From: Perna viridis
Lineage: Eukaryota
Direction: 5' to 3'
NCBI GenBank assembly: GCA_037379345.1
Contig: CM074519.1
Span: 14,796,742-14,860,741 of the forward strand
DNA length: 64,000 nt
Part shown: positions 1,341 to 42,755 of the stretch, piece after piece
How the letters are laid out: each line of letters begins with the position of its first letter
Position numbering within the stretch: the first letter of the stretch is position 1
Notes under the pieces: generated by a model
Database searches by the model: none
The model's input: the letters and a program-made list of their open reading frames with translations, nothing else
Told to the model about the DNA's origin: nothing
Made by a program: the position numbers and the translations under genes

Positions 1341-1793
1341 GTAACAACAACAACCAAGTATTCCAATATATCCTCTCGAAATTTAAATCACCGATGACTA
1401 ATACGTGGCTATAGTTAGCTCCACTTATCTCAGATAAGTGGAACTAACTAATTTTGCGATTGCTCATAAGTTGGTTTCCCGAATAGACTTTATGATCAGA
1501 ACTAAAGTGTTACAATCCAAAAACATCTTTCGCGTAACTGAAATTTAATAAATAAATCTAAATTCAGTATTTGAGGATATTTTTAAAATGTTTGTTTGTG
1601 TGCAATCATTTTATTTAACAGTCAAGTTTACTTTCTGTTCAGATGACTTTGTCAATTTGCATTTTTGTACCACATTGTTTTGTTTTACTTTTATTTCATC
1701 ATTCTTTTTCGTTTGTTAATTTGTTTAATTTTTGTCTTGTGCCGATTTGAAGTGTAGAAACGATATCGCAATGAAAACCACAAGAGAATATCA

Positions 1794-3251
1794 TTAATGT
1801 TTATTCAACTTTCCTTTCAATGGTTCTAAATTACTAGTAACCTGATGATCGTGTAACCAGTTCATCTTTTGTCGGTTAAGGTAACTCCTAGTCAGTTTGG
1901 AATGGAATTCTGTGTGGTATTTTGCATGAGGAAGAGTATTGAAACGAAACCAATTCAAATCTTCAAGTTTATTTGTCTTAGTACGATTTTTCAAGAATTC
2001 TTCGAGACAGTCAAGTACAATTGGATCACGATCTTTATAAAATTTGTTAGCAAATAATTCATCTCTATGTATTAACCAAGGAAGATCCTTCGCGGTATAA
2101 ACACAAACACCTCTAACGAAGTGACTTTGACAACTGATCCCATTTTCATGGCTCCATATCACTGCACGAGACATAAAAGGTGTTGCATTTTTGTATCCTC
2201 CTGGTGCCCATGGTAACGAGTTAAGCGTTGCCCAAGCACTTTCTTCGGGAGCATATGTCCCATTTAACCATTTAATGAATTCAATGGCAACGTTGTCAGT
2301 CAGGATAAATTCAACAAACGGTCGTGAGAAAGCACCATAAGCAGACCCTTTCCTTAAATGAAACCGTTTTATAAAGGAATGCTTTATAGCTTTAGTTTCA
2401 TATATGTTATTGCCTCGAATTTCATATCGTCTTGTGTATCTTTTCTGTTTTACAAATGGGAAATCGTACGATTCTATATCATTAGCCCCGTTTAGTTTTT
2501 GTAGAATTTTCACGATCTCAAAATTAGTCTTCAAAGGAAATTCTTGGCCTGTCAAATTAATGTAATATTTCCATGACGAATTAGATTTGATTAGCGTCCT
2601 CATACATTCTAACTCAGCTTCCACTATATTAATACTAGAATAAATCACATTTATGCGATTTTCTATGACATGAATGTTGTGAAAACATCTGCCAATACTT
2701 TTCATAATTTCAAAGGTTTTTATATCAGATTTTTTATCAACATAGATACAGTATGTGTTATGCGGTCGGTATATTGTCCGTAACAATTGTTCGGCTTGTA
2801 CAGGGTTAGTATGCATTTTAATCGCAAACGCCAAAGGGAAATTACGTTCCTCTGGTAAAACCATTTCATTCTTCGTTACGTAACCATGAGCAAGTTTTAA
2901 AGTCATACATTTTCTTAAAAGATTAGAAAGATGACATTTACTGCTAATTTTATTATGTTTGATATATACTTGTACTTTCTTAATCTCCTCTTTGTCGCCC
3001 ATCACTAATTTGATACAACTCAGACTACTGTTTTGTCTTGGCAGACATTGCGGAAATGACGGTCTAGTTTCTTCTTCAAATTTTCGATTTAAGTGAAATC
3101 GGTTATCAGATTTACCACAACATTGTATTATATAATTGTTAAATCCGCCGACAAGTAAACAGAATAAAAGAGCCAAGACAGCACCCACAACAAACTGCTT
3201 CCGATTGTTTATCTTGTAAACAGTGATTTTTTTCAATATTCGAGAGAACAT
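1794..3251 (-). CDS. Beta-1,6-N-acetylglucosaminyltransferase, core-2/I-branching family (GT14, GCNT-like), type II membrane protein, 485 aa
   Basis: Intact ORF with N-terminal TM (FVVGAVLALLFCLLVGGF) and GT14 motifs FPLAFAI, LLRTIYRPHNTYCIYVDKKS, WKYYINLTGQEFPLKTN, KGSAY, PEE..WATL, C..HFVRGVC, LFANKF. A polypyrimidine-CAG acceptor at 3372-3390 implies an upstream non-coding exon. The paralogue cannot be assigned. Confidence 0.93.
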   Translation of the reverse strand: MFSRILKKITVYKINNRKQFVVGAVLALLFCLLVGGFNNYIIQCCGKSDNRFHLNRKFEEETRPSFPQCLPRQNSSLSCIKLVMGDKEEIKKVQVYIKHNKISSKCHLSNLLRKCMTLKLAHGYVTKNEMVLPEERNFPLAFAIKMHTNPVQAEQLLRTIYRPHNTYCIYVDKKSDIKTFEIMKSIGRCFHNIHVIENRINVIYSSINIVEAELECMRTLIKSNSSWKYYINLTGQEFPLKTNFEIVKILQKLNGANDIESYDFPFVKQKRYTRRYEIRGNNIYETKAIKHSFIKRFHLRKGSAYGAFSRPFVEFILTDNVAIEFIKWLNGTYAPEESAWATLNSLPWAPGGYKNATPFMSRAVIWSHENGISCQSHFVRGVCVYTAKDLPWLIHRDELFANKFYKDRDPIVLDCLEEFLKNRTKTNKLEDLNWFRFNTLPHAKYHTEFHSKLTRSYLNRQKMNWLHDHQVTSNLEPLKGKLNKH

Positions 3252-6218
3252 GTTTGTTCATGCTTTTAAGAGTCTGGAGTTATGCAATATGATGTATTTC
3301 AATACATATGATTCTCCGCGAGTTGATATGATTTGGTTCTATGCTGTTACTTTGACAAATTGGTCGAATGCCTGTAATGAGAAAAAAAAACCATTACAAG
3401 TCTTAATTGTTTATATAAATATTACCTGAATGGTATAAAAGTACCCCTTATAACAATGTTGTATTATAAACATTTTTATGAGTGGTGTAGACCAATAAGC
3501 TAAGTGGTCGGTGTTTGCTGCTTAACAAATGTTGACTATCTGATTTTAGTAATTTTGGTTCTAACGCACAACAAACGTACGTTTCAAGGGCTTGAAATCC
3601 TTTGTTTTTGTTTATGAAATATACTTCCAACCATGGTAATATTTTCAGGTCCAAGCTGCACATTTACTTTTCGAGTTGTTCTTTAATGATTTGGACTGAT
3701 TTTGTTCTCTTAGTATTGATTTAGTTCTTTGGACTCTGTTAAATGATTACCTTTGTTTATATTTTCATGCCATATAATAGTATACACTATGTTTAATTGT
3801 AGCTGAACCAACATTTTTGAACTAATGTTTATATCATTGAGACAGTAAAATGTGGATACATAGATCCATTTCTGAGTGTTCGTATATAAATCGAAATCAA
3901 TATTGTGTCACCAAGAACGACTAAACAGTTTTTAAACGCCTTCACTTCAATAATGATTAGGGTATTTCCGTTTATAATATGCCCTTCCACCGTTCCGTTC
4001 CGTGTTTCCGTCACAGGCTAGGAATATACGTGTATGTTCATTGAAGTAGGAAGGCTTTTCGAATTTGTGAACAAATTACTCGTACGTTGTAGTCACTTTC
4101 GTATTCAATATTATACTGTCACTCCCATTCGATCAAAATCTTTGTAATGAAGATGATTATAATTAAAGATCTTTTCATGAATGTGAACATATAAGTGGTA
4201 AAACCCTAAAAATTATTATGACGTGAAAAGCGTGGAATTGTTTAGTACACATAATGTATACATATGTATCCATTAGCTACTAACTCCTCTTTCTCAGTTT
4301 CATCGTTTTTGCCGATGTCGTGCTCCCATAATTACCTTAGATGGGTTTTTAATGAACGTTTGATTAGAAAAAATATTTTTATGCTCGTTTGTGTCTTTGG
4401 AAAACAACCCGTGTGATGATTATTTTACTTTACGTTTTGACCTGATATTTTATGTATTCGTTTAAATTTACCCTAAAGCATTTGTACAGGAGTTATGCAT
4501 TTTATACTCATGCTCTATATATGTAGTACATGTTGGTTGTAGGAATTTATTGGAATTAAAGGGAGGGATATTTGTTTGTTTCAATTTGTACAATCACAGA
4601 CGGTGATTAATAGAAAAAAAACAAGGATAAACCATAATATTTGTATCAGACTATGTTAGCTAAACCACGGGGGTGATCACACTGGTTCTAAGTTGAAAAG
4701 GGAAGATTAATTCTTAAAAAGCTACTAATCGACATTGATGAAAATCATTTTTTTTTCAATATTTAAATATTCCCGTTCTCACTATATCATAAGAGCATCA
4801 CATTTCTAAGAACACGTATATATTTTTCCTAATTCATCTTAAAGTCATTCATCCCTTTTATCATGTAACTTGCTACATGTGTACATAAAATATTTTCTTT
4901 ACAAAAGATAAATTATATACTTTGATATGTGAACATTGGCATGACTAAATATTTTTTTCGAACATTACTGACTGCATGTAATTTAACACAAGTTAATGAG
5001 TGTCTATTCAAAAAGCATTTATGGTTTGATTTATGAACATACTTCAAACAACCAGTTTTATCTTACAGATACACTTCACATAGGAAATTTCTGTTTCAAA
5101 AGAAAAAAAATCGTCGACATCAGAAGCATAGCAAAGCTTTAAGCAATCTTTAGACCAATTTATAGGAGACGATATGGTATATTTTTAATTTTTAAGTATT
5201 TTAATTCGATGCCAACATAACTGCATGCTTCACAGTGGATATGATGCACAACATTTCTTGCAGATTAATGTCTTAATTATCAAACAAGATTTATTAAAGC
5301 TTATGAATACACCCACATAAACCGATGGTGCTATGGTTTTATGAAGCGATAGTTTAACATTTACAACTATACTACATTTCCAACGTCGAGTGATGAATCT
5401 TGAACGAAACAGTGTCATTTATATTTATATATGAATTTATTTTATTTGTAAGTTAAAGCCATAGGGGATCGAAGAATAATGTATACAGATATTGTTTACA
5501 AAACTTTTTAAAAAATTGTATACAGAACTTTTTTCTGACTTTATTCATATTTCAGGACGAAAACTGGGGATCGCAGAACTTTTTAAAAATTGCTTGTGTA
5601 ATATTTAAAACGACTGAAATTCCAATTACAATTCTATAGAACATTTTCTCGCAAATTAGCTCTTCCTTGAAAGAGCGTCTTTAAAAACAGTGTTTGTAAT
5701 TTTTCCATATATAAGGTTATGCCTTATTTTTTTTTACAATTTTTTACATCATTTTAAATACCATTTTCGTGTTGATAATAGATACTCCTGTGTGATTTTG
5801 CAAAATGACAGAAAAGAATGTTCCGTGTAATAGATTCGATCTACCTTAATGAAAAAGACTTTTAAAAGAGCTCGAGGCATTGTTCTCAAATTGATTAAAC
5901 ATGATTAGAGACAAATATCTTACTCAAGAATTTATACTTTATTTTTTTCATAATAGCAGCAAGACTGTGGTCGTAATTTAAGTTTTAAAACAGATATTGT
6001 CTTGTCCATTAGTTCAATTTGGTTCTACCTATATGTGAAAATTAATGGTTATGGTCTATACCCTTACCAGGATCCAAAGAGGGAGACAACAAATTTTGTT
6101 GATTTTATAAGGGGGGACTGGAAAACCCCTTTTTATGGATTTTTTTACCCGCCACTGCTATCCATAAATTTCTTGCAGAACAACATTGATAAACTGTATA
6201 TGATAATATATATATATA

Positions 6219-6585
6219 AGGTCTGAAAAATTCCCAACGATGTTAGAACTGTCAAATTTGCGATGCAAATTTTTGGTCGTTCCCTCCGCGGGACTCGAAC
6301 TCGTACTGCTGTGACATCTATGGCAACACCGCCTGCACAAAGTCCAGCGCCCTAGACCACTCGGCCAGCTAGGCTATAAAATACAGCTTTCGCTGGCCGG
6401 GTCATTCCTCCTCGTATGATTAATCTAGGGCTGTAACTTAGTACACGATGTATGGTGGTACGGGACAGTTCATTTAGATGTTAATATGTAGGATAGAGGA
6501 TCAAATTAATGATGCATTTGTCACAACAAATCAATATTATACAACGTCTCAGAATGTGACGACTCTATTTGCTACACTGCTCCAT

Positions 6586-6622
<37 letters not shown>

Positions 6623-7035
6623 CTAGCCTATATACATAGCCTAGCTGGCCGAGTGGTCTAGGGCGTTGGAGTTTGTGTTGCCATAGATGTCACAGCGGTA
6701 CGAGTTCGAGTCCAGCGGAGGGAACGACCAAAAATTTGCATCGCAAATTTGACAGTTCTAACATCGTTGGGAACTTTTCAGACCTTTCTAAACGTTTACA
6801 TAACTTCTCTGTATCAATTTGATCCGATGGAGCAGTGTAGTGAATAGAGTCGCCATATTCTGAGGCGTATATATATATAGAAAGGCCTGAAAAATTTCCC
6901 AATGATGTTAGAATTGTCAAATTTGCAATGCAAATTTTTGGTCGTTCCCTCTGCGGCACTCGAACTGTCCTGCTGCATCTATGGCAATACCACCTGCACG
7001 AAGTCCATCGCCCTAGACCACTTGGTCAGCTAGAC
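6219..7035. mobile_element. Three alternately oriented copies (-,+,-) of a tRNA-headed short repeat separated by (TA)n tracts
   Basis: Copies at 6219-6590(-), 6637-6867(+) and 6881-7035(-). A-box TGGCCGAGTGG and B-box GTTCGAGTCC; shared body ...GACCAAAAATTTGCATCGCAAATTTGACAGTTCTAACATCGTTGGG. (TA)n at ~6205-6218, 6590-6620, 6868-6879 and 7037-7058. Confidence 0.8.
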
Positions 7036-10000
7036 GATATATATATATATATATATATTCTGAATAATAATATTTAGAGAAAATATTTAATTAAGCAACC
7101 TTTCTCCATTTTATTTTGCTCCATATGAATTGGAAATCATCTATACTACATATTGATAATAATAGTAATAAAACTGATGACAGTGATGCTTGACAAAAAA
7201 ATGGAACTGTTTTAACTTGAATAATTTGCTATTATTTTTCGAAGCATTTTCAAGCAAAAATCAGAAATAGTTACCGAAATTTAGTTCAGATCAAAGATAA
7301 TTGAACATATGTACCATGCATGTTGTAGTATTCGTTATCAAGAACACCTGTTAGTCTTTGTAGTCTGTTATAAACACGTGGTTACAAATAAGAAATGCGG
7401 TTAATTCAATTGATGTTAATGAGGCATGTCTACTTAAAGACAAAACTTAAGGAATGAAATAGATTTTGTACCACCAATCCAGTCATTTATAAATTCGATA
7501 TCGAATGATTAGGTATCATTATACACGAAAGAACTCTTTAAATACTTGTTTATTTGTCTATTGTCTGCATATTTGGCATTCTTATGCGAACCATATAAAT
7601 ATATTTTTTAAAATAATAATTCCCTCACGTTTATAATATCTAATTTAACCCCACTTGCAAAGTGGACAGCAAACAATAATACATGTATGAGTGTCCAGCA
7701 TTCCTTCACACAGAGGGGTTCCCATCTCTTATCCGTACTCCTTTACACCACTAAATGGATTTTAATGAAACTTCCAACAAATTTTTATTAAACTTTCAAG
7801 GGTGCATTTTGAACCCCTTGCAAAGCTGGAAGTATAAATTGATAGGGATGTCAGTCCTACAGTCTCACAGAGTGAGTGGTGTCCATCTCTAATCTGTTAC
7901 TCATTTTACATCGCCGATTTTGAACATAATGAAACTTTTACAGATTCTTTATAACACAGCCCCATTGTGTACCTCTCATTTCAAATTTCCATAAAAACAA
8001 TTTGGAGGTTAAAAGGTGCATGTTATCAAATTGGGACAACGGTATCAGTTAAATCAAGTTTTTTTTTCTCATTTACTATAAATTTAATTGTGTCTTGTTA
8101 AATATTAATTTATGTACTTATTCTTATAATAGTAATATGTTATATTTGTTTGAGTCGCATTGAAAATAAAGTTTTTGACTAAATTTGCCTTCCTATTTTT
8201 CAACTGTTGAGGCGATTACAACATTATTATTATAATTATATCTATTCATTTTACCTATAATTAATTAATGTGATCAGATTGATAACCAATAAATATATTA
8301 TTATATCTGTCTTTTATCAAGTGTTTTGTTACAACAAGCAGTAGTACATAAAGTTAAACTATATATTTTGAAAATAGGGATTTTAAAAAACAGGCTTTCA
8401 AGCGTTCCCAACACCATCTTAACTGGAACATAAAGTATAGTACTAAACTACCAATCACCAATAAATATTCTTACAATAGCCCTAATCTATAAACAATACA
8501 GAAAACAATCCTTAAATAGGTTGGTTAATGTAATTATATTTTCTAATAAATATTGTTTTATTAAACAAACAAAACAAAATTCTAAGTTGCCCCAAAAGGT
8601 CTCCATAACATAATTATCAATAAATTTTAGATACCTTACGTTAACTCATTTAAAATTCTTTATCATTGTTATTTAGTCAATGAAACTTTCTTAATTGTAG
8701 AATCAGAAGACATACCTTCACTGCCGAAGAACTATCCATTATAATTATGTTACCATCCTTATTTATGCTATTTTTGTAACATTATAAACAGCTGTCCAAT
8801 GAGTACTGGGATACCCTTGTGTTAACTCGTGGTCAGGTTTTATTCTTTACGTTTACATTAAAGTTGCGTGGTAAATAAAACCGGATGGACGTAGTGTTGC
8901 ACCTGTTAATGATTATTTATGAAAGGGAATGGCCAATAAAACAAGCACCATGTATATGGTTGGTTAATTGATATTAACTGAATGTGATATCTAAAGATTT
9001 GGAAAAGTCGACATTTAAATGCATTGTGAATGATAAAGATCTTTAAAACATAAGAAAAATTGTACTATAAAGTTAAATAATATGTAACTATTTACATGTT
9101 AAATGGTCAAAACAATTATGACTTTAAAATTAAAAAAAAATTGTTAAAGTTTTCTTGTGCAGTTATGTACCACTATTCTAACTTTTTAATGCGCCGTGAT
9201 AGCCTGAGAGACGGACCTCCGGACAAAGATTATAAGACAAAACGTATTAAAACTTATTAAGAAATATTATGTTTCCGGAAAACAGATTTTCATAATATCA
9301 ACAAATGTACTTTTTAATGTATTTTTACTTATTTTGTTATTTTTATGTTGAAATTGACGCGTCATCCCAATAACGTACAGGACTTATATAAAGGTTGGTG
9401 TTTTCACTTGTATTTTACTTGTATTCAGTGCCTTTTATTTGCACTTTTTCATCATTCATATCTTCTGCATTGTTGATTTTTTCCACGTTTGACTCTGGCA
9501 TTTTATGCTGCAAGTTAATACACTGTAATGAAAGCGGGAGGCTTTGTGCGCTTTAAAACCTGGTTTAACCCACCACGTCCACCACAAATGCTTGCTAAGT
9601 TAGGACTACTGCGATAGTTTCCATCTTTTCGTTTTTTACCTTGATGATGCCATTTATTATATGGACTTTTGACTATTGTCTTACCTTTGCATGCTGATTA
9701 TACGTATGTTGTTGTTGTTTTGTGTGTTTGTTTCGATTTTTTTATTGACCAATTAATGACAATTGCAATTTAACTTGACAATTACACCTTTGATTAGATG
9801 ATATCATTTTACACAAGCAAAAAACATGCCAGTTAATTATGCAACAAAAATTGGCAAACACAGCGTGATCAATTTTTTCAAACTGCGTTTCAACAATATT
9901 TTAGTTAATGCATGCCTTGTTTAATGCTTTGTTCAATTGCCTTCGTTATATCTCATATTAATTACAAGAAGACATACCTGTCAATAACAATATACATAAT

Positions 10001-10705: not shown

Positions 10706-10918
10706 AAAAAGAGTAATCAAGGGAACCAAGGTTATAGCGGTAATCAAAAGAATGTAATCCAGAGACAAAGACCCGACATGGAAAACAGACATACACAACA
10801 AAGAACATAAAGTAACTAAAATCATACATACAAAGTAACAAAAGCAAATGAGCAAATCGGACTCCACTAAAAACTGGGAGCATGGACCAGGTGCACCGGT
10901 AGGGTAAGCGTCTTCTGC
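10706..10918 (-). mobile_element. 3'-terminal fragment of the Naiad-like Penelope family
   Basis: Near-identical to the 3' UTR of the copies at 16160-17045 and 21225-22570 (GACGCTTACCCTACCGGTGCACCTGGTCCATGCTCCC...CCTTGGTTCCCTTGATTAC). Confidence 0.85.
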
Positions 10919-14100: not shown

Positions 14101-16159
14101 ATTATTAGTTGTATGAATTACGTAGTAAATATTTGAATTTATCACAAATTTAAAAACAATTCTTAGATATCAGAAAAGCTTATAATTGCTTTATATATTA
14201 CCTACACTTTTGTAAATAATTTATTCTACTAAAACTATACAATAAGACATATTTAGACATTCCCAATTGCAAGTTCATGTATTTTCGCAACATTCGCAGT
14301 TGACTCGATACAGGAAAAATAAGATACTGCGTAAAGGTCTGAGTATCGTATTAAATTTCCCATAGACTTCTACAGTGAAGTGCATATTTTTAGGATTTTT
14401 TTTTAAAAATATGTAAATTGATTCAATAAAACTTTCACTTATGTAGCATTTCTAAGGACATATGAAAAAATAATTTCCTGCAAAGAAAATAGGGTGAGTC
14501 CACGAAGATCGGGCAGAAAAGTAGTCTTGAATTATAAATAGCCATTTTCCCTATTTTCACGTTCGTTTTGCACTCACCAAACCAACCTTTTCAGTGGAAC
14601 ATTTTTATGTTATTATGTTAGATTTTCTTTTAAAAAGTTCTTCACCAAACAGTGTGATGTTTGCTCTATTTTATAAGTCATCGTTCATATCTTTTGACAA
14701 TACATTAGTTTGTAGAGAGGCAAAAAGAAAATACACTATATTTTTTATAGCAGCCATGTTTTGACGTACACCCGCTCAGGGATATGCAATACGATACTGG
14801 TACCTAAATTGCCAACCGTTTGTAAGAGCATAGCATTGAATCGTTTGTATATTTAATTTTCATGCCAGCGAAATCTAATCAAGATAATAGATAACATCCG
14901 GGGTCAACATGCATGTCTAGTATTCAGTTAGGATAATAAAACCAATTATACATGAATGAGTCATTAGGATTTTCTTTTAGCAGTATGTATCTATGGTACT
15001 GCATACATTTCAGATTATGCAATGAAACAAATAAATGGTGTCTCATTTAATTTATCACACATCAAACTAGAAAATTATAGTTCATTATATTTCTTGTTGT
15101 ACTCTTAAACTCCAAGCTTACTACAACTAAAACCTTTTGGTAATGAAATGTAGCTTTAAATTGTTCATCTACTAAACTCGATCTAGTGTTATCACATGGT
15201 GACCTATGTCACCATGGCAATTAACGTAAAAAAAACACTATTTTATGAAACTAATTGGGGTCAAAACTAAAGCGGTATGTTCGGTTTATACCTTAAATGA
15301 ACTTAAGTCATCGAAAAGGTAAGCTTTTTTTGTCGAAAAAAATCTTTTATGCTGTTCACCTATGCACTTTATGGAAGCCTTAGCTCAAAGAGAAACAAAA
15401 TTGTGTAAAATTGTGAAAATATTTGATTTCATTACATTTATTCCAAAAATTAATGCCGATAGTATCAAGACATTTTTTGTGTAATATTGTGCTTGTCGAA
15501 TCATGTCTACCGATAAGTTTGGATCGAAAAACTACCAGCAAACCTTCAAATATCGTAAGAAATCATTGAACGTTAAATTCACGAAATCATCTAGCTCAGA
15601 GGTAGAATAACAGAAATAATACCTTTTGGTTTCATACATTTATTCAGGCTCTTTATAAATAAACGCTGCAAGATACAACATATAATAAATATCACAGAAT
15701 TCATAGTCATATCTAAAATACATGGAATACGAGTAAAGAAACATATACGAGTTATAATTAGGACAGTGAACAGGATCGAATAAACAAGTTACAGTATGTA
15801 CATTTTAATTGTGCTAATCCAATGTTCAATCAGCATTGATAAATTACATCCATTGATTTCCATAGGCAATAAACATCATTAGTAATGCATATTCTTTACT
15901 ATTCTTACCAATTTATGGAATTGGGTTTACAGAAAACTTCCACTCATTCCATCAGCCCAGACTAGTGTAAAGGTACTATGAAAATAATGTAATAATTATA
16001 ATAAAAGGGATACAGACATATATGATCCCATAATTATTATTTATAAATATCATTTATAGATCAAATGTAACCTGACAATAGGAATTGCATATTGATTATG
16101 CAAATCAGAATCTAAATACAACTGATTTTGATTATGTGACTTTAATAAACGTTCGACAT

Positions 16160-17045
16160 TCTAATGGGAACAAATTGTGCTCCTCTACTTGCTGACCTAT
16201 TCCTTCACTCTTATGAGGCTGACTTTATAGCTGATCTGATCAGAAAGAAAGAATAGCCTTTAGCTAAATCCTTTAATCTCAGTTTCCGCTATATATGTAT
16301 GACGTATTATCTTTAAAAAATATTTATTTTGGAGATTTGATACATCGCACCTTCCAAAAGAACTTGAGATAAAGGATACTACAGACACTGTGAAGTCAGC
16401 CTCATATCTTGACCTACACTTAGAAATTGATGGTAAAGGAAAACTATTGACCAAATTTTACGACAAACGTGATGACCTTTCAGTCAAAATTGTCAACTTT
16501 CCTTTCATCTGTGGCAACATCCTTTCAACACCTGCATAAGGAGTGTTCATATCACAACTCATACGTTATGCCAGAGTTTGCCGAGACTACGCAGACTTTT
16601 TGTATCGCGCTAGATTTCTAACAAATAGGCTTCTGGAGCAGGGTTATGTTGCTACAAGATTGAAGTCATCACCACAAAAGTATTTTGGTCGTCATCATGA
16701 AATCGTGGATCGTTAGGGTGTATCCATTTGCGTCATAAAAACTGATTTGTTCAACGGGTCATAGTTTTCCTTTCCTCTTTCGTCTACCCCAGACTTTACT
16801 TTTTATGGGCAACTCGGCGGGTGTTTCTAGAAAAGCAGAGGACGCTTACCCTACCGGTGCACCTGGTCCATGCTCCCAGTTTTTAGTGGAGTCCGAGTTG
16901 CTCATTTGCTTTTGTTACTTTGTATGTATGATTTTAGTTACTTTATGTTCTTTGTTGTGTATGTCTGTTTTCCATGTCTGGTCTTTGTCCCTGGATCATT
17001 ACATTCTTTTGATTACCGCTATAACCTTGGTTCCCTTGATTATTC
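16160..17045 (+). mobile_element. Naiad-like Penelope-like element, 5'-truncated and decayed (RT C-terminal half plus 3' UTR)
   Basis: Translates to MGTNCAPLLADLFLHSYEADFIADL...KELEIKDTTDTVKSASYLDLHLEIDGKGKLLTKFYDKRDD with frameshifts; same 3' UTR as the other copies. Confidence 0.9.
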
Positions 17046-19545
17046 GTTACTCTTTATTTATTTAACATATAAATAGACCCACAACTGTAGAAGTCACGGT
17101 CCCTATCAGAATAACTGTATGTATAAAATATATCATTATACAAACAAACTACATATCTATACCATCAAACATCCACAGAATCAGAAATTTCTCTCTCCTA
17201 ACTTAACATACAGGCCAAAAGACATACTCACCTATAGAGGAAAGAAAACAATAGTATTCACTTCAAACGACATTCATACACCTCAAGTAAAGTGGGAAAC
17301 CTACAAGATAAAGAAATGGCTATAGTTCCAAAAGTACATTATGCTCTAACACTCTGTTACAACATATGCTAATTTTTCGTTATAGTCTGAGTTTTACAAA
17401 TGTCCAAACTAGTCACCATATCAAATCTCCGCAAAAGTGAAAACTGACCAATAAGAACTAATCATAAAAACTTACCTAGGTGTGACATTTGTCTTTAATT
17501 GCTAAACTGGACAGGTAGAAAAAAACTACAACCCAGAAGAATTAAGAATCAACTGACTACACCAAAAAAAATACTGAGCACATTGAATAGCAGATGATAA
17601 TATAATAAAGACTATGTACTATCCGGCAGGTAATAGGCAATAAAATACACTTTGTCACATAGATACGATACTTTGTGAGTTCATTTTGACACTTTAAGAT
17701 TCTAACAACTGTGAATTTGTTTGTAATTGTTAAAGTTATTCTTTTAACGCAAGAAAAATAGCCGAACAAGTATTTTCATGTGGTTAGTTTAACTTTTCAC
17801 TAAATACAGTCTGGACAGGAAACCAATTAGTATATACGAATGTATCCCTTGGTTGCTTTAAAAACTGTTTGATTTCAACAAAATATTAGATATATATTCA
17901 TTGTAATGAGGTTGTGAAAAACATGGATTAAAAAATAATCACCGAAAGTCGTCTCTGGGTCAAAGCTATATGAGAACTCCTTTTAAGAGTGTACTCAATT
18001 TAAGTGCTTTTTGGTGGCTTACTTTCTGATAAAAAAAAATGTTTTGGTGAGACGCAGAGACCAGAACATCTTTGACACCAAAATTAGGGTCATTTCTACA
18101 AAAAACCAACAAAAATTCTAAATGTTTACATCAATGACAACTCATATATGAGCAGTAGGAAGACTTGTGTGAAGTAATTAAAATACTACTTGAATAAAAT
18201 GGATAAAAGGTATTACAATTATTTCAGTTAAAGGATTTTTATAGTTATCATATTAAACAAAATCACTTTGACCGTTTATGAATAATTATCATATTCATAT
18301 ATAATTACAGATCGAGTATATAATTTATTCATTTAACATACAATACCTTTTCACATGTTAGTCGGAGATATAGAAGTAGGGTTATCATATAAAAGATATA
18401 CGCAGTGACCGTATTTTCAAAAGCAATAGAGTATATTCTCCAAAAAAATGACCTGTTCTTATTTTCTGATCGAGTATTCATTTATTTCCCTTCTGTTAAC
18501 ATACAATACATCTTCATATGTCAATCGGAGATGTTGTAATGCAGATATCATATTAAAAAGTTTATGATCGAGTATTCATTTATTCTCTTCCCGTAAACAT
18601 ACCATATCTCTTAGTGGATACATCGGAGCTTCAAGTGTTTGCAATCGATGAAAAATCGAAACTGTTGATAAACAATTGTCTCGTTTGTAACTTTTTAACG
18701 TAAAAATAATACGAAATTGTAATGAATATGAGGTTATTAAATAGAAATGGTTGCGAAATTTAAACATCCGATATTTTTTCTTGCAAAGTAGTTTATTGAT
18801 TATTGTTTATTTATTGTTTTTGATAAGATTTTGTTCATGATCATTGCCAGTTGTTGTTCCGGGTGATTGAAAGCATTCGGGTCAAAACGGTTACGAAAGA
18901 GTACGCCATAACATCAAGGGAAGCAAGATATTAGCGGAAGTTACCCGATTTTAGAGCATATCGCATTTGTACCATTTCGGATGTTGAAAGTAAGCTAAAA
19001 TCTGTGGCAGTGAATATTTGACGATTAGCGACTTTGAAGACTTCAGTCTTTGATTATATATATATATATGTTTTGCACGATTGTTTTCCATTCGTTCTTA
19101 ACTTGTTTAAATGTATGGCTTAGAAATTGCTGAAATAGCTAAATAAAAAGGTTTTAACGAGTTAAACATGATGATAACAACGGATGACCCATTGATGAAT
19201 AACAGTAACCTTATTTTGCTTCATCTTGGTTTCCTATATTCACGTTCAGGCCATGCTTTTGGATTTTGACATATTTGAATTACTCCACTGGCCTGCTGAC
19301 GCTTCGGAATGTTTTTATCGATATTTCGATTTAAATTCAATCAGAAGTTAATAAGGAATGCTATTTCAATATGTATCACGATTTACAGATGTAGATATTA
19401 AACTACGTATTCCTACTTTTTTGTCCCACTTACTGACAACAATATCAGGGATTGTCTTATCTTCACAGTAGGTCAAATATTGGAGAGTTGCTATCGCAGA
19501 GGTTGTGGTTTTGTAGAACATATAGCTGAAAAAATTTATTTTGAA

Positions 19546-21069: not shown

Positions 21070-21224
21070 ATTATGAAATAAACTTTTTTTATAAATTTAT
21101 ATGTTTACTCTTATTATGTGTAACTGTTCGATGCACTCAAAACATAAGTGTTTAATTATTTAATTAGGAAGAATCTGTTCACAACCTCATTTGAAACATA
21201 TATATTGTAATTTTCAAGAGGAAA

Positions 21225-22570
21225 GTGTGATCAAGGGAACCAAGGTTATAGCGGTAATCAAAAATGTAATCCAGGGACAAAGACCAGACATGGAAAACAG
21301 ACATACACAACAAAGAACATAAAGTAACTAAAATCATACATACAAAGTAACAAAAGTAAATGAGCAACTCGGACTCCACTAAAAACTGGGAGCATGGACC
21401 AGGTGCACCGGTAGGGTAAGCGTCCTCTGCTTTTCTAGAAACACCCGCCGAGTTGCTCATAAAAAGTCAAGTCCGGGATAGACAAACGACGAAAGGAAAA
21501 CTATGACCCGTTGAATAAATCAGTTTTCATGGTGCAGATGGATACATCATAACGATCCACGAGTTCATGAAGACGACCATAAAACTTCTGTAGTGATGAC
21601 TTCAATCTTAAAGCAACATAATCCTGTTCCAGAAGCCTATTTGTAAGAGTTCTAGTGCGATACAAAAAGTCTGCGTAGTTTCGGCAAGCTCTGGCATAAC
21701 GTATGAGTTGTGATGTGAACACTCCATACGCAGGTGCTGAAGGAATGTTGCCACAGATGAAAGGAAAGTTGACAATTCTAAATGAAAAGTCATCACGTTT
21801 GTCGTAAAGTTTGGTCAATAGTTTTCCTTTACCATCAATTTCTAAGTGTAGGTCAAAATATGAGGCTGACTTCACAGTGTCTGTAGTATCCTTTATCTCA
21901 AGTTCTTTTGGGTAGATGCGATGTATCAAATCCCCGAAATTAGGATTGTTTAAAGATAATATGTCATCTATATAGCGGAAACTGAGATTGAAGGATCTAG
22001 CCAAACGATATTCTTTCTTTCTGATCAGATCAGCTATAAAGTCAGCCTCATAAGAGTGAAGGAATAGGTCAGCAAGTAAAGGAGCACAATTTGTTCCCAT
22101 TGGAATGCCGACCGTTTGTTGAAAAACACGTCCACCACACTTGACAAATATGTTGTCGATTAAAAATTCCAGCATTTTTTAAACATATTCCCCTGTATAT
22201 TTGGAAGATGATTTTGCATTATTTCTTACAAAGTATGAGGAATCTCTACCAAGAACTATAGATTTGTATCTAGGTGTACCATCTTTTTTGAAAAAAACAA
22301 CGATGTATGACGTTTTTAAGTCGGGATTTTAACTGAGTATGGGGAATAGAAGTATACAGTATTGAAAAATCATAGGTTTTAATGCTATTATATTCAGATA
22401 ATAGTCTTGAACTAATTGTTTCCAAAAGATCTTTCGAATTTTTCAGGATTCACATTGAATTAATACCACTACGAGAGTAACAAGTGTTGTGGTATGACTG
22501 CAGACCCTCTTTGACAGTTGTGAGTATAGAAGTTAAAAGTTTTGAAAGAGGATTGTTGGTACATTTTGCT
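21225..22570 (-). mobile_element. Naiad-like Penelope-like element: RT core with the ORF ending after the thumb (no C-terminal GIY-YIG), plus 3' UTR
   Basis: ORF 21501-22175 contains QQTVGIPMGTNCAPLLADLFL, FRYIDD, YDKRDDF and SQLIRYARAC. Upstream broken frames give PLSKLLTSIL...YSRSGINSM*ILKNSKDLL and IKTYDFSILYTSIPH. An RT at the C-terminus fits the N-terminal-endonuclease Naiad clade (inference; the endonuclease itself is not present here). Confidence 0.9.
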
Positions 22571-22951
22571 ATTCCTAAACTTGTAACTCGTAGTTAAACG
22601 ATATATATAATTACATACTTAAGTACGAAGTATTTGATTATTTTAGAACAAGAAACAATCACCAATTTGAATTTAAAGGGGAAACATGAAGTCTTCTAAA
22701 ATTTACTGAAAAAATCAAAGCCTCTGTCCACAAAAGAGTTAGACTAATGAATCTCTACACACACAACAGATGAATGAACTTGAGTTGTTGGATCATTTGA
22801 TTTTTTTTACCGCAAAGTAGAAAACCATAAAACTTCAAAAGCAACCAAAACGAAAGCAACATAAGCTACATTTACCCACATTCTCCGCTTCGAACATTCT
22901 ATTTTTAGTTTTCCGTTATTGACACAGTTTAAAATAAAAGAGTAGTCAAGG

Positions 22952-23348
22952 AAAGTGTAATCAGGGGAACCAAGGTTATAGCGGTAATCAAAAGAATGTA
23001 ATCCAGGGACAAAGACCAGACATGGAAAATAGACATACATAACAAAGAACATAAAGTAACTAAAATCATACATACACAGTAACAAAAGTAAATGAGCAAC
23101 TCGGACTCCACTAAAATCTGGGAGCATGGACCAGGTGCACCGGTAGGGTAAGCGTCCTCTGCTTTTCTAGAAACACCCGCCGAGTTGCTCATAAAAAGTC
23201 AAGTCCGGGATAGACAAACGACGAAAGGAAAACTATGACCCGTTGAATAAATCAGTTTTCATGGTGCAGATGGATACATCATAACGATCCACGAGTTCAT
23301 GATGACGACCATAAAACTTCTGTAGTGATGACTTCAATCTTGTAGCAA
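22952..23348 (-). mobile_element. Second copy of the Penelope 3' end (RT tail plus 3' UTR) upstream of the previous copy; pseudo-LTR
   Basis: Near-identical to 21225-21615, including private variants not seen in the 16 kb and 38 kb copies. Confidence 0.88.
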
Positions 23349-26526: not shown

Positions 26527-26597
26527 TGCGTTGGCCGGGAATCGAACCCGGATCGCTTGCTTGAAAGCAACCATGCTAACCGTTACAGCACCGACAC
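26527..26597 (-). pseudogene. tRNA-Gly(TCC)-derived pseudogene
   Basis: GTGTCGGTGCTGTAACGGTTAGCATGGTTGCTTTCAAGCAAGCGATCCGGGTTCGATTCCCGGCCAACGCA closely follows metazoan tRNA-Gly-TCC. The anticodon loop is 6 nt (TTTCAA rather than CTTCCAA), and the acceptor and D stems carry substitutions. Confidence 0.75.
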
Positions 26598-26928: not shown

Positions 26929-27039
26929 TGATATGATTCATAAATAGAAGCACCGCAGCGTACTTGTAGTTTCCATTTGTTTTAACACTATTTTTTAAGT
27001 GATTTTTACGAATGAATTATACACATTTTCTTACAACCC

Positions 27040-29475
27040 AATGAATGGTTTAATACTGAGTGCAAACAAAAGAGGGACACTTTTCATAGGGCTAGAAAAA
27101 TATATTATAGATTTAAAACCGATCACAATCGTGAATGTCTAGCTAAAGCTAGTCAAGCATATAAAAGGGCTCTTAACAGTAGTTTTGAAAACTACCAAAA
27201 CAAAGTCCTGAATGAAATACGTACTGCAAATTCATCGGAACCTAAAAAATTCTGGAGTATTTTAAATCGTATGACAAAGATGAAAAAGCAATCAGTCGAT
27301 GTATCATTATCTGATCTTTACGATTACTTCAAAGATGTAAATGATACCGACGAGGAGGCTGACGATCTAAATTTTAACTTGAACGAAAATGTAATGCAAG
27401 ATAATGAAAGTTTAAATGCTCCTATATCTCAGTCTGAAATAAGACATGTTATAATGAATTTACACAATAATAAATCACGTGGTCTCGATAATGTGTATAA
27501 TGAGTACCTTAAACATTATGATTGAAATTTATGCTAAACTTTTCAATTATATTTTTGATACTGGTATTATACCGGAAAGCTGGTCAGTTGGTGTTATAAC
27601 CCCTATATTTAAAAATAAGGGTTCATCAAATGACCCTACAAATTACAGGCCTATCACGTTTATGAGCTGTTTTGGAAAGGTGTTTACTGGTATACTGAAT
27701 AATAGACTTACTAAATTTTCGGATGAGGTTGGACTGATATCGCAAGTCCAGTCTGGGTTTAGGAAATCGCACTCTACAGTTGACAATATTTTTAAATTAC
27801 ATAGTCTTATTAATTTTTATATTTCAAAAAAGAAGAAACTCTTTTGTACTTTTATTGATTTCAGTCGAGCTTTTGATACTATTTCGAGGGCTGGACTATG
27901 GCAAAAGTTACTACAAAATAACATTAATGGAAAATGTTTCAGAATCATCAAAAATCTTTATCAGAATGTAAAATCCTGTGTTACAAAAATGGTCAAAATT
28001 CTGATTTCTTTGCTTGCAACATAGGTGTCAGACAGGGTGAAAACCTTTCTTATTTTCCTTATTTATAATTGATATGGAACAACATTTAGACCAAAATGGA
28101 GCTGATGGTCTGAGTTTATTGGGTAACATTTCTGAAGAGTATCTTGATATTTATTTGAAAATTTTTCTTTTATTATACGCCGACGACAGAGTTTTAATGT
28201 CAGAGAGTGTTGAAGGTATGCAAGCTATGTTAGATATTTTTCATGACTATTGTAATACTTGGAAATTGCATGTCAATGTTGCTAAAACAAAAGTTGTTGC
28301 GTTTACAAAAAGAAGATGCAATGACAATGTTGTACTTACTTTTAATGGTAATATTTTGGAAGTTTGTGAATCATATACTTACTTGGGAATTCTTTTTAAT
28401 TTTAATAATAGTTTCGTAAATGCAAAGAAAAGGTTGGTTGAGCAAGCATAAAAAGCATTATATTCTGTGTATTTTAAGATAAGGAACTTAAATTTGCCTA
28501 TTGATCTCCAACTGAAAACTTTTGATACATTGGTGAAACCCATATTGTTATACTCATGTGAAGTCATAGGTTTTGATAAAAACGACAACATAGAGAAAGT
28601 ACACCTGCAGTTTCTCAAAAGAATAATTCGGGTTCGAACAACCGCACAAAATTACTTGGTGTATGGTGAATTGGGTCGTTACCCACTTGATATCGATGTT
28701 AAATGTCGCATGATTACATTTTGGAACAGGCTTGTATCATCAAAAACTTTACCTTCTAAAATATATGAAAGTCTATCTAGGCACTATATGTATGAGGAAA
28801 ATAGTTTTAAGTGGATGAAATTCATAAAATCTATTTTGAATGATACAGGGTTTAGTTTCCTTTTTACCGAAAACATACATGTAAGTAATGAATGGCTTAA
28901 AATACATGTAAGACAGGTTCTTAGGGATCAGTTTGTTCAAAAATGGTGATCTGATCTTCTCAGCACATCTAGAGGATTATTTTATCTCACTTTTAAAGAG
29001 GAGTTTAAACTTGAGCCATATCTACTTAGACTTCATCAAGAAAGTAGAATTCATTTTACTAAACTGCGACTGTCAAATTTAAAAATTCCAGTCGAGACTG
29101 GTCGTTGGTACGATATACAGAGAGAAAATAGAATATGTCATAAATGTAATACCAATGCTGTGAGATGAATTCCATTACTTATTTATTTGCAAAAATGTTG
29201 ATATTACAGACATTAGAAACAAATTCATTCCAAGCTATTATACCACACACCCAAACGAAATTAAGATGATAGGTATGCTTCAGATATGTAACAAAAGGTT
29301 GATCATGAATGTATCAAAATTTATTACAAAATTGTGCTCTTTGTTATAGTCAAATGTACTCACTATCCCCATGTTTTTCATTATTTCATGGCTAGTATAT
29401 GCATTTGTAGTTATTACCATGTTTAATTTCATGCTTATGTAGCGCTTCGGCGCCTGAGTTTAATTAATAAAATCT
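27040..29475 (+). mobile_element. 5'-truncated, decayed non-LTR retrotransposon (RTEX-like ORF2: RT plus C-terminal CCHC)
   Basis: Broken ORFs carry WFNTECK, NNKSRGLDNVYNEYLK, NYRPITFMSCFGKVF, QSGFRK, FIDFSRAFD, GVRQGE, LLYADD, ELGRYPL and ETGRW...CHKC...EFHYLFIC. A 3' hairpin and AATAAA lie at ~29440-29471. Confidence 0.88.
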
Positions 29476-34800: not shown

Positions 34801-37800
34801 TATATCAATATTCCAGTATTTTTGTGTAATTGTCTATTCTGACCTATTTAGAAAATTGTGTAGTTGTCGCATTTTCTTTCAAAGTGCATAAGGAAGAGAC
34901 AAAAACTCAAGAAAGGATAGATGACAGTTAGGCAAACGAAGTCGTTGCGCTTGCCATCGTCGGAAACTTCCCTAATTTGTCAATTTCGAGAACTTATACA
35001 AGGTAAGGATAAGTGGCAGACTTCCATGTGTGTAAGTTGTACTCTTTTTTAAGCTAGGCGAAGGAAGTCCAAAGCCTTACTTAATAGATTCTACTTAGTG
35101 ATACTCGTCTCTGTAGAGTAGTTGTAGAGTGAACTATCCATGCCTAAGTAGAGTTTGTAAAATTTATAAAACGGCGTAATGATCGCAATGTCTTAGCGAA
35201 AGTGTCGTTCAATATAATTTATACCTTACTGTTGAACATGTACTATTATCGGCCATCTCAGTAAAAGTTATTGGTGGAGAATCGTTGGCAGATAGCTGAA
35301 ACCCAATAGCTAACACAGCCAGGCTTATAAGAATACCTGTTAATGAAAGAAATCAAGAATACTGAATGTTACATTTCTTCCTTGGAGAAACTGACGCTAC
35401 CGATATTTGAAGCGCGCCGGACACAAAATATGGGAATGAAGGAAATGAAACTTTGATCGAGTGAATAATTTTTCGCCTGACATATTTGTATACTTTAAAA
35501 ACAATGGTCGAGAATATGCTGGTGAACCGTACTAGTTGTTCGGAGTTTGGTGTAAACTGTCGTTTTGCTGAAGAACATGTAATGGTATCCGGGCTCGGCT
35601 AAATTGCCACTGAGTGACATATAAAAGGGTATAACTCCCTTTTTGTACGCTGGATTCGACCCGTTTGTAAAGCGAATACAGTTCTCCCGCATGCGCGTTT
35701 CGGACGCAAGAGATTTCTTACACTGAACTCGGACGCAGAGTTGTGAAATAAATTGGGACTCGGTCCAAAATTTAGGCCGTACGCTGGACTCGCCACCATT
35801 TTAGAGCGTACGGTGGACTCAAGTGGAAAGGGGTCCCAGGCAGTGATATTGTATTTGGGTAATAAACCAGGGGCGGATTCAGGATTTGAGTGTGTGTGTG
35901 TGGGGGGGGGCGTTAATTGAATTAAAGGCCATGCAAAGCAAGGCAAAAATATTATGGGGTGAAACTTGTGGTGAAATTATTTTTCTTGCCGATTTTAGAG
36001 GGGCGTTGGGCTAGCATGCCAGTCCTTGGATCCGCGCCTGTAGACGTTTATAGGTATAAATTGTACCAATTCAAACATCGACATAATTATCAGATTACTG
36101 TCTAGTTAATATTACCTAATAAACTTAGAAGGCAAAGTAACCGTCTTCCAAGCTTCTCAACTAACCACATACCAACCAATGAGAAGACAAAATTGACGAA
36201 TGCTGTAGCTGCTGACATCCAGATAGCAGTGGAATTGTCACGGACACCTGTCATCTTTATTATACTGGCACTGTAGTACCTGCAGGCAATAAAGTTCCCA
36301 GTGTTAAGATCAGAACCCCTTTACCTATATTGGGCTAGATAAACAACATGCATTAAATAACGCTTTATACGACCGGTATATCAAACACACATGTATTGTG
36401 TATGATCAGTTTTACCCATGGAAAGGAACCACTTCTATGTGGTTATTTTCCTTAATATTAACCATGATTTATTATCTGTTCCGCTTAAGTTGGAAAAAAA
36501 ATGCCCACGAACAAATACTCATAAGTACATTTGTAATTATTTGACCAATTCTGCAAGGGATCTATGATCTGTGATTTAAGTTGAACGATGTCAGTATTTG
36601 TGTGTTGCGTTTCTTTTGTACTGTTGTAATTGTACGTTATTTGCCGATTTCATATTGCATACATCACAGAAATGGAATTGCTATACATGTATTGTCTAAT
36701 TTGTTAAGAACCACTTTAATTGCTTTTAAGTATTAGTCTTTCTAAAAATCAGACAGAAGGTGATTCATGCATGTTAAAAACCCACCGAATTCAGTCTTAT
36801 TTCTTGTTCAGAAACAATTTATGATCACATAACCAGTCTTAGCTTTTCATTAGGTTGTTGCGCTTTTGAGATAAAAATCATATAGATTGTACATGAATTT
36901 GCACTTTGGAAGAGTTATCGTTCTTGATTTGGCTTCATTTGGTTGATTTCAGTGGGAGATGAATGTATGATTTTCTTAAAAGTGCAGATCTGAATGCAGA
37001 AATGGTTATTGTTCTGTGAAAATATAGCATATGTAGACTGAAAAAGCATCATTTGTTTGGTGGGTTTTTCTTCACCATGAATCACTTTACCATTGGCAAT
37101 GTCTGAATTTTATGTGGACTGGTACTTAAGACGAACAATTTCATTCGTGGAGCACTATAGTTCTATGGTACAGTGTCAGTATACATTAACATGCATTTTT
37201 TCTGTGTTGTTCAACTGAAGCGTTAGTTGTAATACGTAATGGTATAAGCTATTATTTTCAGTACCAACGTTTGAACAAAATAAGAATAAAACAATGCATC
37301 AATCCGGTTCCGACGTACATGACTGTGTTAATCCCACTTAGCTGTTGGAATAATTGAAGACCACATCCTAGTATCAGAGCTCTCCGAACAGACGGCGTCG
37401 TCATAATCCTCTTCAATATAAACTCATCTGTAAAAGAACTGTACAATTCTTATCTACATTGGAAATATCATTCTATCATAAGACATATGATATTCGTTTT
37501 GCTGAGTCTCTGAATCAACGTGATCTTCAAAACTTTCTAGCCTATAATTCAACAATTTAAAAATAAATGTATCTACAATTGCAGGATCTTATAACCAGAT
37601 GTAGTTACATGTGCAACACACTTGTAGGAAGAGTAATCAAGGGAACCAAGATTCTAGCGGAGCGGAAACCAAAAAAATACAATCCAGGGACAAAGACTAG
37701 ACAAAGAAAACAGACAAACACAACAAAGAACATAATTAACCAATAAGAGACACCTAGAAATTCCTTGCTGAAAAGTCTTTGAAACCTCGAACAACACGGC

Positions 37801-40757: not shown

Positions 40758-42755
40758 TTTCTATTTTCGAAATGTACTGTCAACTTTGATATGACGAGTA
40801 TTTGTGATATAAAATGAACAAAATTTAAAGTTATTGTTAAATAACTACGGCATACAATGTGAAACCTTAGAGATACATATGAGGTATTTCTTTTGGGAGA
40901 TAACAGTTTTATCAGCGTATACTATTCATTTTAAGTGAGATTACATAAATGGGATGACGCTCACTTGGAGTATAAAAAATCTAGGTCATTTTAACATGAT
41001 ATATACACACTCAAAGTCCAATTGCAGATCAAGTATGGTACTGATCAGCATATTTTTTTCAATGAAACACCACGCGACTGGAAACTGTTCTACATCAGCT
41101 TAACACATGGCAGGCCAAGGAAGGACAAATACACAGTAAGACTGCCATTCCTCCCTACATCAGCTCAACACATGGCATATCACAGAAGGACATAGAGGAT
41201 AATACGACACGGACAGCCGTTCCTTTATAATACAGGTCTGTGTTGAATGATGCAAAATTTCCGTCAGACATACTAAATGCCTTGCCTAGTAAAGAAAATA
41301 ACCATTTTCTATAAAGATAATCAGCACTTAAATATAAATTTGTTTTTGTATATTTCGGACAGGTGTTTCCGTTGCTTTGCAATCATCTTTTGGTTTCCGA
41401 GGATGGTACACGCCTTGAATCTGTTCTCGAACAAGGGTTAATGAATTAAAACAAAACAAAAACTGCTGTTTTACTGCAAAAAGCATAACCTAAAATCGCT
41501 TACAACGTATGTCCTATCTATATAAAGACACATCAAATTTAAAATCAATTTGGAAATGAGATGATTACGACGAAATCGGATGACCGGAATGACAGACGGA
41601 CAGACAAGTGATTCCAACATACCACCAACTCGTTAATTGGGGGTATGAAATATCGTCCTACAACTGCGACCTAATGGAGACTTTTATAGGTCTTACCATA
41701 AGGATATTAAATTCAACATCAGCAATTTCTTTCTATCTATTATGGTTTTCAAGTTTCTGCAAACTAATGACACAAGACAAAATTGTTCGCCTTTAAAGGG
41801 CCATTACTCTACAAAATGTAACCTTGACCCAAAGAAACTTTCTTAGGCTTTATCATAAGAACTACTTCATAAATGGGATGTTCTTTTCTATCAATTACGG
41901 GTTTTATTTTAAATTGAAAAAAAAAAAACAACAAAAACAACAAAAAACAACAAAAAACATAGTTCACCTTTCAAGTTACAACAACTATAACAAAATGTTG
42001 TCCTTCAACTTTGAACTAACATAGACTTGAAGCAAAATAGTGGAATAGTGGCTTTACTTATATGTTCTATAATCAAACACTGCAATCACATTTGTTTCCC
42101 CATAATCAACACAATATTTAAAGTAACCCATTTAAATAATGCTGATGACTAAATTTGGTAACAATCCACTCAGTAATTTCAGGAGAGAAGATTTTTTTTT
42201 AGAAATGTAAACAACCACAGATGCTAAGAAATGGCAAAATGACAATTGTGTTATCTCCCTTCACAATATGTTTTGTATTTAATGAAAATGATTTGTAAAA
42301 TCCTTAACTTTGTGTGGTTTCAACATAGGTACTTTGGAATAATCTTTTAACCTTCTTTTATTGTTTGGAACCTTGTGGTCAGATTTTATAAAGATCAACC
42401 AACTAATACTCAAAGTTGTTATCACATCAAATCCAAGTGTCCCTGGACAATAACACAAACAAAGACTTGAATAACTGACAACCACAACAAGCACCATACA
42501 ATCATATGACAATTTTCTTTGCAATCATTGAAAAATTCCAGATCCCTGAACTTTATTTTAACTCAGTTTTTGTGACAAAATATGGACAATAATGTATTGC
42601 AAAAAAAAGCTATTTATATTCATTTGATGTTACAGTTTGGGTTAATAAGGAACTGCAAACAGCTGTCCGAGTTGTAAGCCATGATACAAATTACCATTCT
42701 TTCCTCATTTCCAAAAACTTTGTAAAGAAAACTCGAATAAAAGGAAAAAAAGAAA

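Follow-up and report, generated by a model that had tools for sequence, protein, structure and literature searches.

The window, by which we mean the whole 64,000-nt stretch of DNA that was analyzed, contains three pieces of F1, a dispersed non-coding repeat with a 410-nt unit and a tRNALeu-like promoter of A and B boxes at its head. F1 is a real, abundant and recently active family. With moderate confidence, we propose that Pol III makes an F1 RNA one unit long, that the ends of this RNA pair as predicted, and that the RNA, closed or held end to end, is copied round into (TA)n by the reverse transcriptase (RT) of a Neptune-type Penelope-like element (PLE). When all PLE-based explanations are taken together, mobilization by a PLE is very likely. 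We describe the architecture of F1, its ends, the homogeneity of its repeats, the covariation between two families and the co-location with PLEs, and from these we infer Pol III transcription, the RNA ends, their ligation and the identity of the enzyme.

Results

The pieces were mapped on a 410-nt reference unit that is an actual head-to-head repeat at locus L023. As the first-pass annotation had noted, every junction is (TA)n and the orientations alternate: pieces A, B and C lie on the −, + and − strands between four (TA)n tracts. Piece A (6219–6590, − strand) runs from unit position 199 to 410, crosses the tail-to-head junction and stops at position 163, at end site 1. This site (6220–6230, − strand), an AGAC motif, serves as the 3′ end beside a (TA)6 target tract (6207–6218) and would be an internal start for RT, while end site 2 (6544–6553, − strand) lies inside the piece and was read through. 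Piece A has a Pol III B box at 6291–6300 and, in its tRNALeu-like head, an A box at 6357–6367 (both − strand). Its tail-to-head junction (6372–6391, − strand) is a non-canonical variant with a T4 run, the predicted Pol III terminator, abutting the predicted start. Around it lies a conserved fold, P1–P4 (6349–6431, − strand), a predicted panhandle between the last ~55 nt of the unit and the first ~30 nt of the head.

A (TA)16 tract (6590–6621) separates the 5′ ends of pieces A and B. Piece B (6633–6868, + strand) extends from the head to end site 2 (unit position ~250) and contains an A box (6646–6656), a B box (6704–6713), end site 1, which was read through (6774–6784), a short GATCC stem (6811–6825) and end site 2 (6859–6868), which serves as the 3′ end although its motif is mutated here. 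The segment with which piece A starts is the one with which piece B ends (6590–6544 and 6822–6868; 89% identity over 47 nt), and from it piece A continues ~166 nt further to the tRNA head. A (TA)6 tract (6868–6879) separates the 3′ ends of pieces B and C. Piece C (6878–7040, − strand), an older copy that runs from the head to end site 1 (unit position ~169), has an A box at 7018–7028, a B box at 6956–6965, end site 1 at 6884–6894 and, at its 5′ end, (TA)10 (7038–7057). Since pieces A and B are 91% alike and piece C 86%, the three probably inserted one after another into TA tracts. The A and B boxes were assigned by the Pol III consensus, which fits both F1 and a sister family, F2, and both families retain them. 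Intact boxes and a tRNALeu-like head bear out the earlier description of a tRNA-promoter unit.

Elsewhere the window holds a Core-2/I-branching glycosyltransferase domain in a single open frame of 487 aa (1794–3257, − strand; E = 1e-43), exons of a sugar/MFS transporter gene (38018–40760, − strand) and a broken non-LTR-type reverse transcriptase with RVT_1 hits in two frames (27016–28949, + strand) that by eye is not PLE-like. A tRNA-like gene at 26527–26597 (− strand) has a Glu-like look and was given the undetermined anticodon ttca by ARAGORN. There are tandem arrays at 43065–44588 (period 328), 52404–52922 (period 52) and 62331–62816 (period 89), and the 328-bp unit has relatives at 46405–47180.

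The 723-Mb genome, which from its repeat content may be that of a marine invertebrate, comprises 46 contigs, in which two DNA searches returned 1642 and 1271 F1 candidates, 40 from each being scored. A 34-nt pattern spanning the tail-to-head junction has 829 exact matches, and its reversed control has 0. The permutation is thus not local to the window: the copies are, genome-wide, permuted cuts through a single ~410-nt monomer, as the first-pass annotation had claimed. The head-to-tail multimers that it had suggested looking for are also present, with insertions of 1–3.6 units, the longest seen being 1486 nt with four junctions (L328). By exact matching, which gives a lower bound, two junctions 410 apart were found 69 times, including four adjacent pairs; this search revealed no exact run longer than the adjacent pairs and no satellite array. 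F1 segments (at least 40 nt, 80% identity) occur as 15 clusters in 13 of 97 round-coordinate 10-kb windows and make up ~0.5% of the sampled DNA, from which we extrapolate ~11,000 loci, with a wide error.

By eye, the D arm and anticodon side of a genomic tRNALeu(TAG) gene align with the F1 head. A tandem array with a period of ~1087 bp at ~6.66–6.71 Mb of contig G000:C6 (L297) contains tRNALeu(TAG) and, on the opposite strand, an intron-bearing tRNALeu-like gene, the anticodon of which we take to be CAA; ARAGORN called only TAG genes there. The junction pattern had 0 matches in metagenome contigs. Contigs of four sequencing runs cover the F1 unit and are uninformative on ends, strand and circles; in run X6, labelled organism B, 46% of the words of the unit are present and 28 of 30 bins are covered. 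The sequence matches suggest that the F1 family may be present in a close relative of the source organism.

Mapping copy endpoints on the unit bears out the permuted cuts but shows that they are not random. F1 3′ ends fall at two sites, unit positions 158–186 and 240–262 when alignment into TA is allowed for, in 14 of 25 random-window, 39 of 60 junction-selected and 31 of 53 PLE-flank segments, compared with 12.7% expected; these counts omit duplicate loci and segments touching locus edges. Each site consists of AGAC, five bases and TATA, and the spacing is 83 nt. TA follows 70 of 84 two-site ends versus 11 of 54 other ends. The 5′ ends are scattered; they are enriched at the head beside PLEs (15/53), less clearly so in random windows (5/25, p = 0.08). 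Many copies span exactly from the head to the second site (570–680 nt). Inverted 5′-to-5′ joins number 36 in 138 segments, often with a few overlapping bases, and 3′-to-3′ joins number eight.

The SINE layout of a 5′ head, a LINE-derived or simple-repeat 3′ tail and TSDs was not found in F1, where (TA)n makes TSDs unreadable. Copies instead cross the tail-to-head junction and end at internal AGAC sites, in line with the earlier view that these are not ordinary SINEs. The traits of non-autonomous PLEs, namely partial tandems, truncated 5′ ends, inversion of 5′ pieces and an optional tail, are all present.

F2, which was reached from a diverged random hit, has 1648 candidates and units of 443–469 nt, with the head and junction of F1 and a different body. 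One AGAC-TA site ends 19 of the 29 best F2 segments, and a second AGAC, 124 nt on, ends 0 of these 29. In both families four helices lie across the junction: 90% of cells in an alignment of three F1 and 13 F2 rows are paired, versus 32–42% when the fold is slid, and four compensatory double changes are fixed between F1 and F2, although this covariation is in effect a single two-family comparison, not sixteen. When monomers are cut at the junction T-run, the ends pair in five of five predicted folds (four F1, one rotated F2), joining the first ~30 nt to the last ~60 so that base 1 faces the base preceding a U4 overhang. The junction is the only place in F2 with a T4 run (p = 0.02 by shuffling). 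In F1 a T5 run lies at unit position 151, immediately before site 1, and argues against a clean terminator: Pol III must pass this run and might pass the junction too. Transcription by Pol III is inferred from the A and B boxes and the placement of the T-runs. RNAalifold detected no common structure in the tails between the two sites (−1.9 kcal/mol).

The fold could instead be a self-cleaving ribozyme, either remodelled or of a kind not yet described, which would cut multimers to monomers for ligation, as in a retrozyme, although we consider this improbable. F1 (410 nt) and F2 (~468 nt) are short dispersed tandems at or slightly above the 170–400 nt of retrozymes, resembling non-LTR retrozymes in size and tandem form (PMC7229834); in the fold GAAA stays unpaired and a loop of six bases is conserved; and F2 has one hammerhead-core hit with one mismatch. 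However, an exact core is absent from both strands of F1 and F2, while the same kind of scan detects the cores of the two PLE families described below; helix II is absent; and the best match to a PLE hammerhead region is not significant (p = 0.08). An Rfam search of eight loci gave no ribozyme, only sub-threshold hairpin hits, and is a weak test, since it missed the PLE hammerhead cores too. Two candidates noticed by eye were dropped: an HDV-like antisense loop motif, which has no P1/P2 partners, and a relic hammerhead derived from PLE-B, which did not reach significance (p = 0.08).

Fourteen polymorphic sites divide F1 into three main subfamilies, each uniform across units. Diagnostic variants mismatch in 12% of comparisons among repeats of one insertion versus 45% between loci (33 multimers), and in 29 further two-junction loci 21 of 232 diagnostic sites differ between repeats. 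As divergence of the first from the second unit would be expected without homogenization, the likeness of repeats points to a single template copied round. Rare variants common to repeats (23/98, nine from a single locus) are weak evidence, and data on linkage across the junction versus within the unit are sparse and confounded by distance. Some copies are mosaics among F1 subfamilies or of F1 and F2, so template switching between RNAs also happens; in two F2/F1 chimeras, at L212 and L229, the switch lies inside the common tRNA head.

The junction varies far more than the internal run: its T-run has five T in 54 of 76 cases, whereas the internal T5 keeps that length in 125 of 127 (Fisher 6e-9), and identical junction variants recur across all three subfamilies. 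Of 29 loci, 17 carry two identical junctions (10.6 expected by permutation, p = 0.0005), and in five loci the two are identical and non-canonical, versus 0.6 expected. Since four of these five loci have diverged by 3.4–5.8%, their identical junctions are not fresh duplications. Among 17 loci with a non-canonical junction, 12 have two unlike junctions, which either background divergence (5.4%) or independent crossing would allow; T and TA tracts slip easily. The pattern fits repeated copying of a junction that has been rebuilt from RNA ends, the alternative being slippage plus inheritance. Overall, the DNA evidence leans toward one template copied round rather than a multimer.

It is possible, though rather unlikely, that the same element and a Neptune-type partner use a linear read-through transcript of 1.4–3 units from tandem masters. 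LTR-like strand transfer between heads would then keep repeats alike, and the fold would serve RNA stability or protein binding. The internal T5 of F1 shows that read-through is needed, the many copies running exactly from the head to the second site would suit such a transcript, as would the mosaic copies, and PLEs are described as forming partial tandems themselves (PMC8557442). Yet this explanation does not account for the sole T4 run of F2 being at the junction, for the excess variation of the junction T-run or for a fold that joins exactly the predicted transcript ends, and no long masters were seen in the exact two-junction search.

Homogeneous repeats of more than one unit would suit any rolling circle, including one at the DNA level, Helitron-like or extrachromosomal, that carries the tRNA-like segment by chance. 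We judge this even less probable than a hidden ribozyme, as the polarity of F1 is that of the tRNA sense strand, its ends are like those of RT-encoding PLEs, inverted 5′ joins are frequent and G-U pairs favor a fold of sense-strand RNA.

Which PLE could supply the RT? The first-pass annotation had looked to the PLE RT that is abundant in the window and to Naiad elements. The RT at 21501–22178 and its copies are indeed Naiad-type, with a DKA motif and an ORF that stops after RT; DKA lies in the displayed open frame of three of four translated Naiad loci, and the fourth carries DKA too. The window has six 5′-truncated Naiad-type copies (10708–10918, 16141–17054, 21217–22178, 22945–23348, 37629–37735 and 38680–39149); their 3′ UTR is long and hairpin-like, and their 3′ end is fixed and unlinked to TA. 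A Naiad partner would be consistent with the great abundance of Naiad-type RT (66219 genome candidates, from which one family was examined) and with the (TA)n bias published for Naiads (PMC8557442). However, in none of 30 copies does TA follow the single fixed 3′ end of the examined family, which does not match the F1 unit in sequence and is adjoined by F1 or F2 in only 1 of 29 loci. The proposal of a PLE RT finds support, but its assignment to Naiad, with neither the ends nor the target of the unit, does not, and is the explanation to which we give the least credence.

Two further PLE families, PLE-A and PLE-B, both Neptune-type and better suited as the likely partner, were found, one by clustering upstream of 90 TA-run sides and the second by a scan for hammerhead cores. 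PLE-A encodes an 897-aa ORF with RT (E = 4e-6), a linker with cysteines, and GIY-YIG at the C terminus (E = 1.5e-4), and judged by the criteria in PMC8557442 its sequence fits Neptune or Nematis. PLE-B is ~30–60% identical to PLE-A, depending on the segment. Both contain hammerhead cores, that of PLE-A in its terminal repeat. Like F1, both are inserted in (TA)n and have paired AGAC end sites, 88 nt apart in PLE-A and 83 in PLE-B. Among 26 readable PLE-A ends from 29 loci, nine are at site 1, 14 at site 2 and three between, with TA following 19 of the 23 two-site ends.

F1 or F2 is present in 15 of 29 PLE-A and 11 of 24 PLE-B loci, 26 of 53 in total, versus 19 of 240 random pieces (Fisher 3e-11); the loci were picked by PLE sequence alone, and query loci were removed. 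The 3′ ends of F1/F2 and a PLE meet across a TA tract in 8 of 53 loci (three other listed loci are internal matches). A common target alone can suffice for this co-location. F1 and the PLEs share the AGAC motif, the 83–88-nt spacing and the short GATCC stem. Since alignment of F1/F2 with PLE-A or PLE-B gave p < 0.02 in 0 of 24 tests (three PLE families compared), it is motif, spacing, target and architecture that support the link. At L286 in G000:C9, an F1 copy extending from head to site 2 lies immediately upstream of the start of a PLE-A copy with an uninterrupted 897-aa frame (1703–4396, − strand), and a second, inverted F1 precedes that F1 copy.

Discussion

How might a repeat that ends in the middle of its own unit persist? 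An RT that starts internally drops everything 3′ of its start, so such a SINE needs a tandem or ring template, and the terminal fold would give a ring. In the copying-round model that we prefer, Pol III would start at the A after a junction T-run and halt at the next junction T-run, making an RNA of ~410 nt. Its first ~30 nt and last ~60 nt are predicted, with support from covariation, to pair and place the U tail next to the 5′ end. The RNA ends would then be ligated, which we favor, or crossed by the RT. As the common ends suggest, the PLE protein would cut (TA)n and start within the RNA at either AGAC site, as at its own tail. In the DNA, the 3′ end of the product is seen to be fixed and its 5′ end to vary, up to 3.6 units are present and a 5′ piece is frequently inverted. 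A whole promoter-to-terminator unit would be regained only if the copy is at least 573 nt, once round or more. More tentatively, at somewhat below even confidence, we suggest a ribozyme-free covalent circle, in which the fold holds the terminator tail and start together, a host enzyme ligates them and the Neptune RT rolls from the mimicked AGAC.

If this is true, F1 would be the first tRNA SINE with a named PLE partner that we have found in print, its RNA would belong to a new and abundant class of circular RNAs made by Pol III, and small genomic parasites would have a ribozyme-free route of multiplication. In the literature that we covered, the partners described for SINEs are all LINEs, and hammerheads define the retro-circles of animals, while F1 has neither a LINE tail nor a hammerhead. 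Titles and the openings of abstracts held no PLE-mobilized tRNA SINE or ribozyme-free retro-circle; supplements, Repbase or Dfam may already include F1 or F2. F1 also offers a minimal, 410-nt substrate for asking whether the partial tandems of PLEs come from circular RNA, as proposed in PMC4209133. A short start signal is indicated, AGAC before TA, twice, 83–88 nt apart, in a Neptune PLE and its putative parasite.

PLEs provide precedents for these ends. In a Poseidon PLE, reverse transcription begins at two positions within the RNA, which delimit the genomic tail, and both strands of the target are extended (PMC11167929), and the published PLE pattern includes truncation, partial tandems, an inverted 5′ copy and an optional tail (PMC8557442). 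Neptune and Poseidon resemble F1 in having a choice of two 3′ ends and targets rich in AT, and in their 5′ truncation and inversion (PMC11167929; PMC8557442), although the tail described for them is 30–40 nt, compared with 83–88 here, and F1 is non-coding. Chlamys MRC1-type non-autonomous PLEs likewise form pLTR-like partial tandems and multicopy head-to-tail insertions; however, they have 3′ sequence in common with their partner, and the available text of PMC8557442 mentions no tRNA head, whereas F1 has only short motifs and spacing in common with its candidate partner.

Bivalve tRNA SINEs also have a tRNA-derived head with A and B boxes and form some tandems, but theirs have LINE-derived tails and TSD-linked arrays, and the main text describing them does not contain the word "Penelope" (PMC11481361). 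Non-LTR retrozymes are non-coding short tandems of 170–400 nt with a circular RNA stage and a proposed dependence on PLEs (PMC7229834; bioRxiv 10.64898/2026.07.22.740005), while F1 and F2 are known from DNA; as described there, retrozymes have a type I hammerhead and originate from a PLE pLTR, whereas F1 and F2 have a tRNA promoter, no hammerhead core and no pLTR homology. F1 thus lacks the defining features of both an ordinary SINE and a retrozyme and would work like the latter. The nearest precedent is Schistosoma Sm-alpha, which has a Pol III promoter and tandem units and requires more than one unit to propagate (PMC6765202). Although Sm-alpha is described as hammerhead-processed, in F1 a T-run within a terminal fold marks the unit boundary, and its fixed ends are those that it has in common with PLEs.
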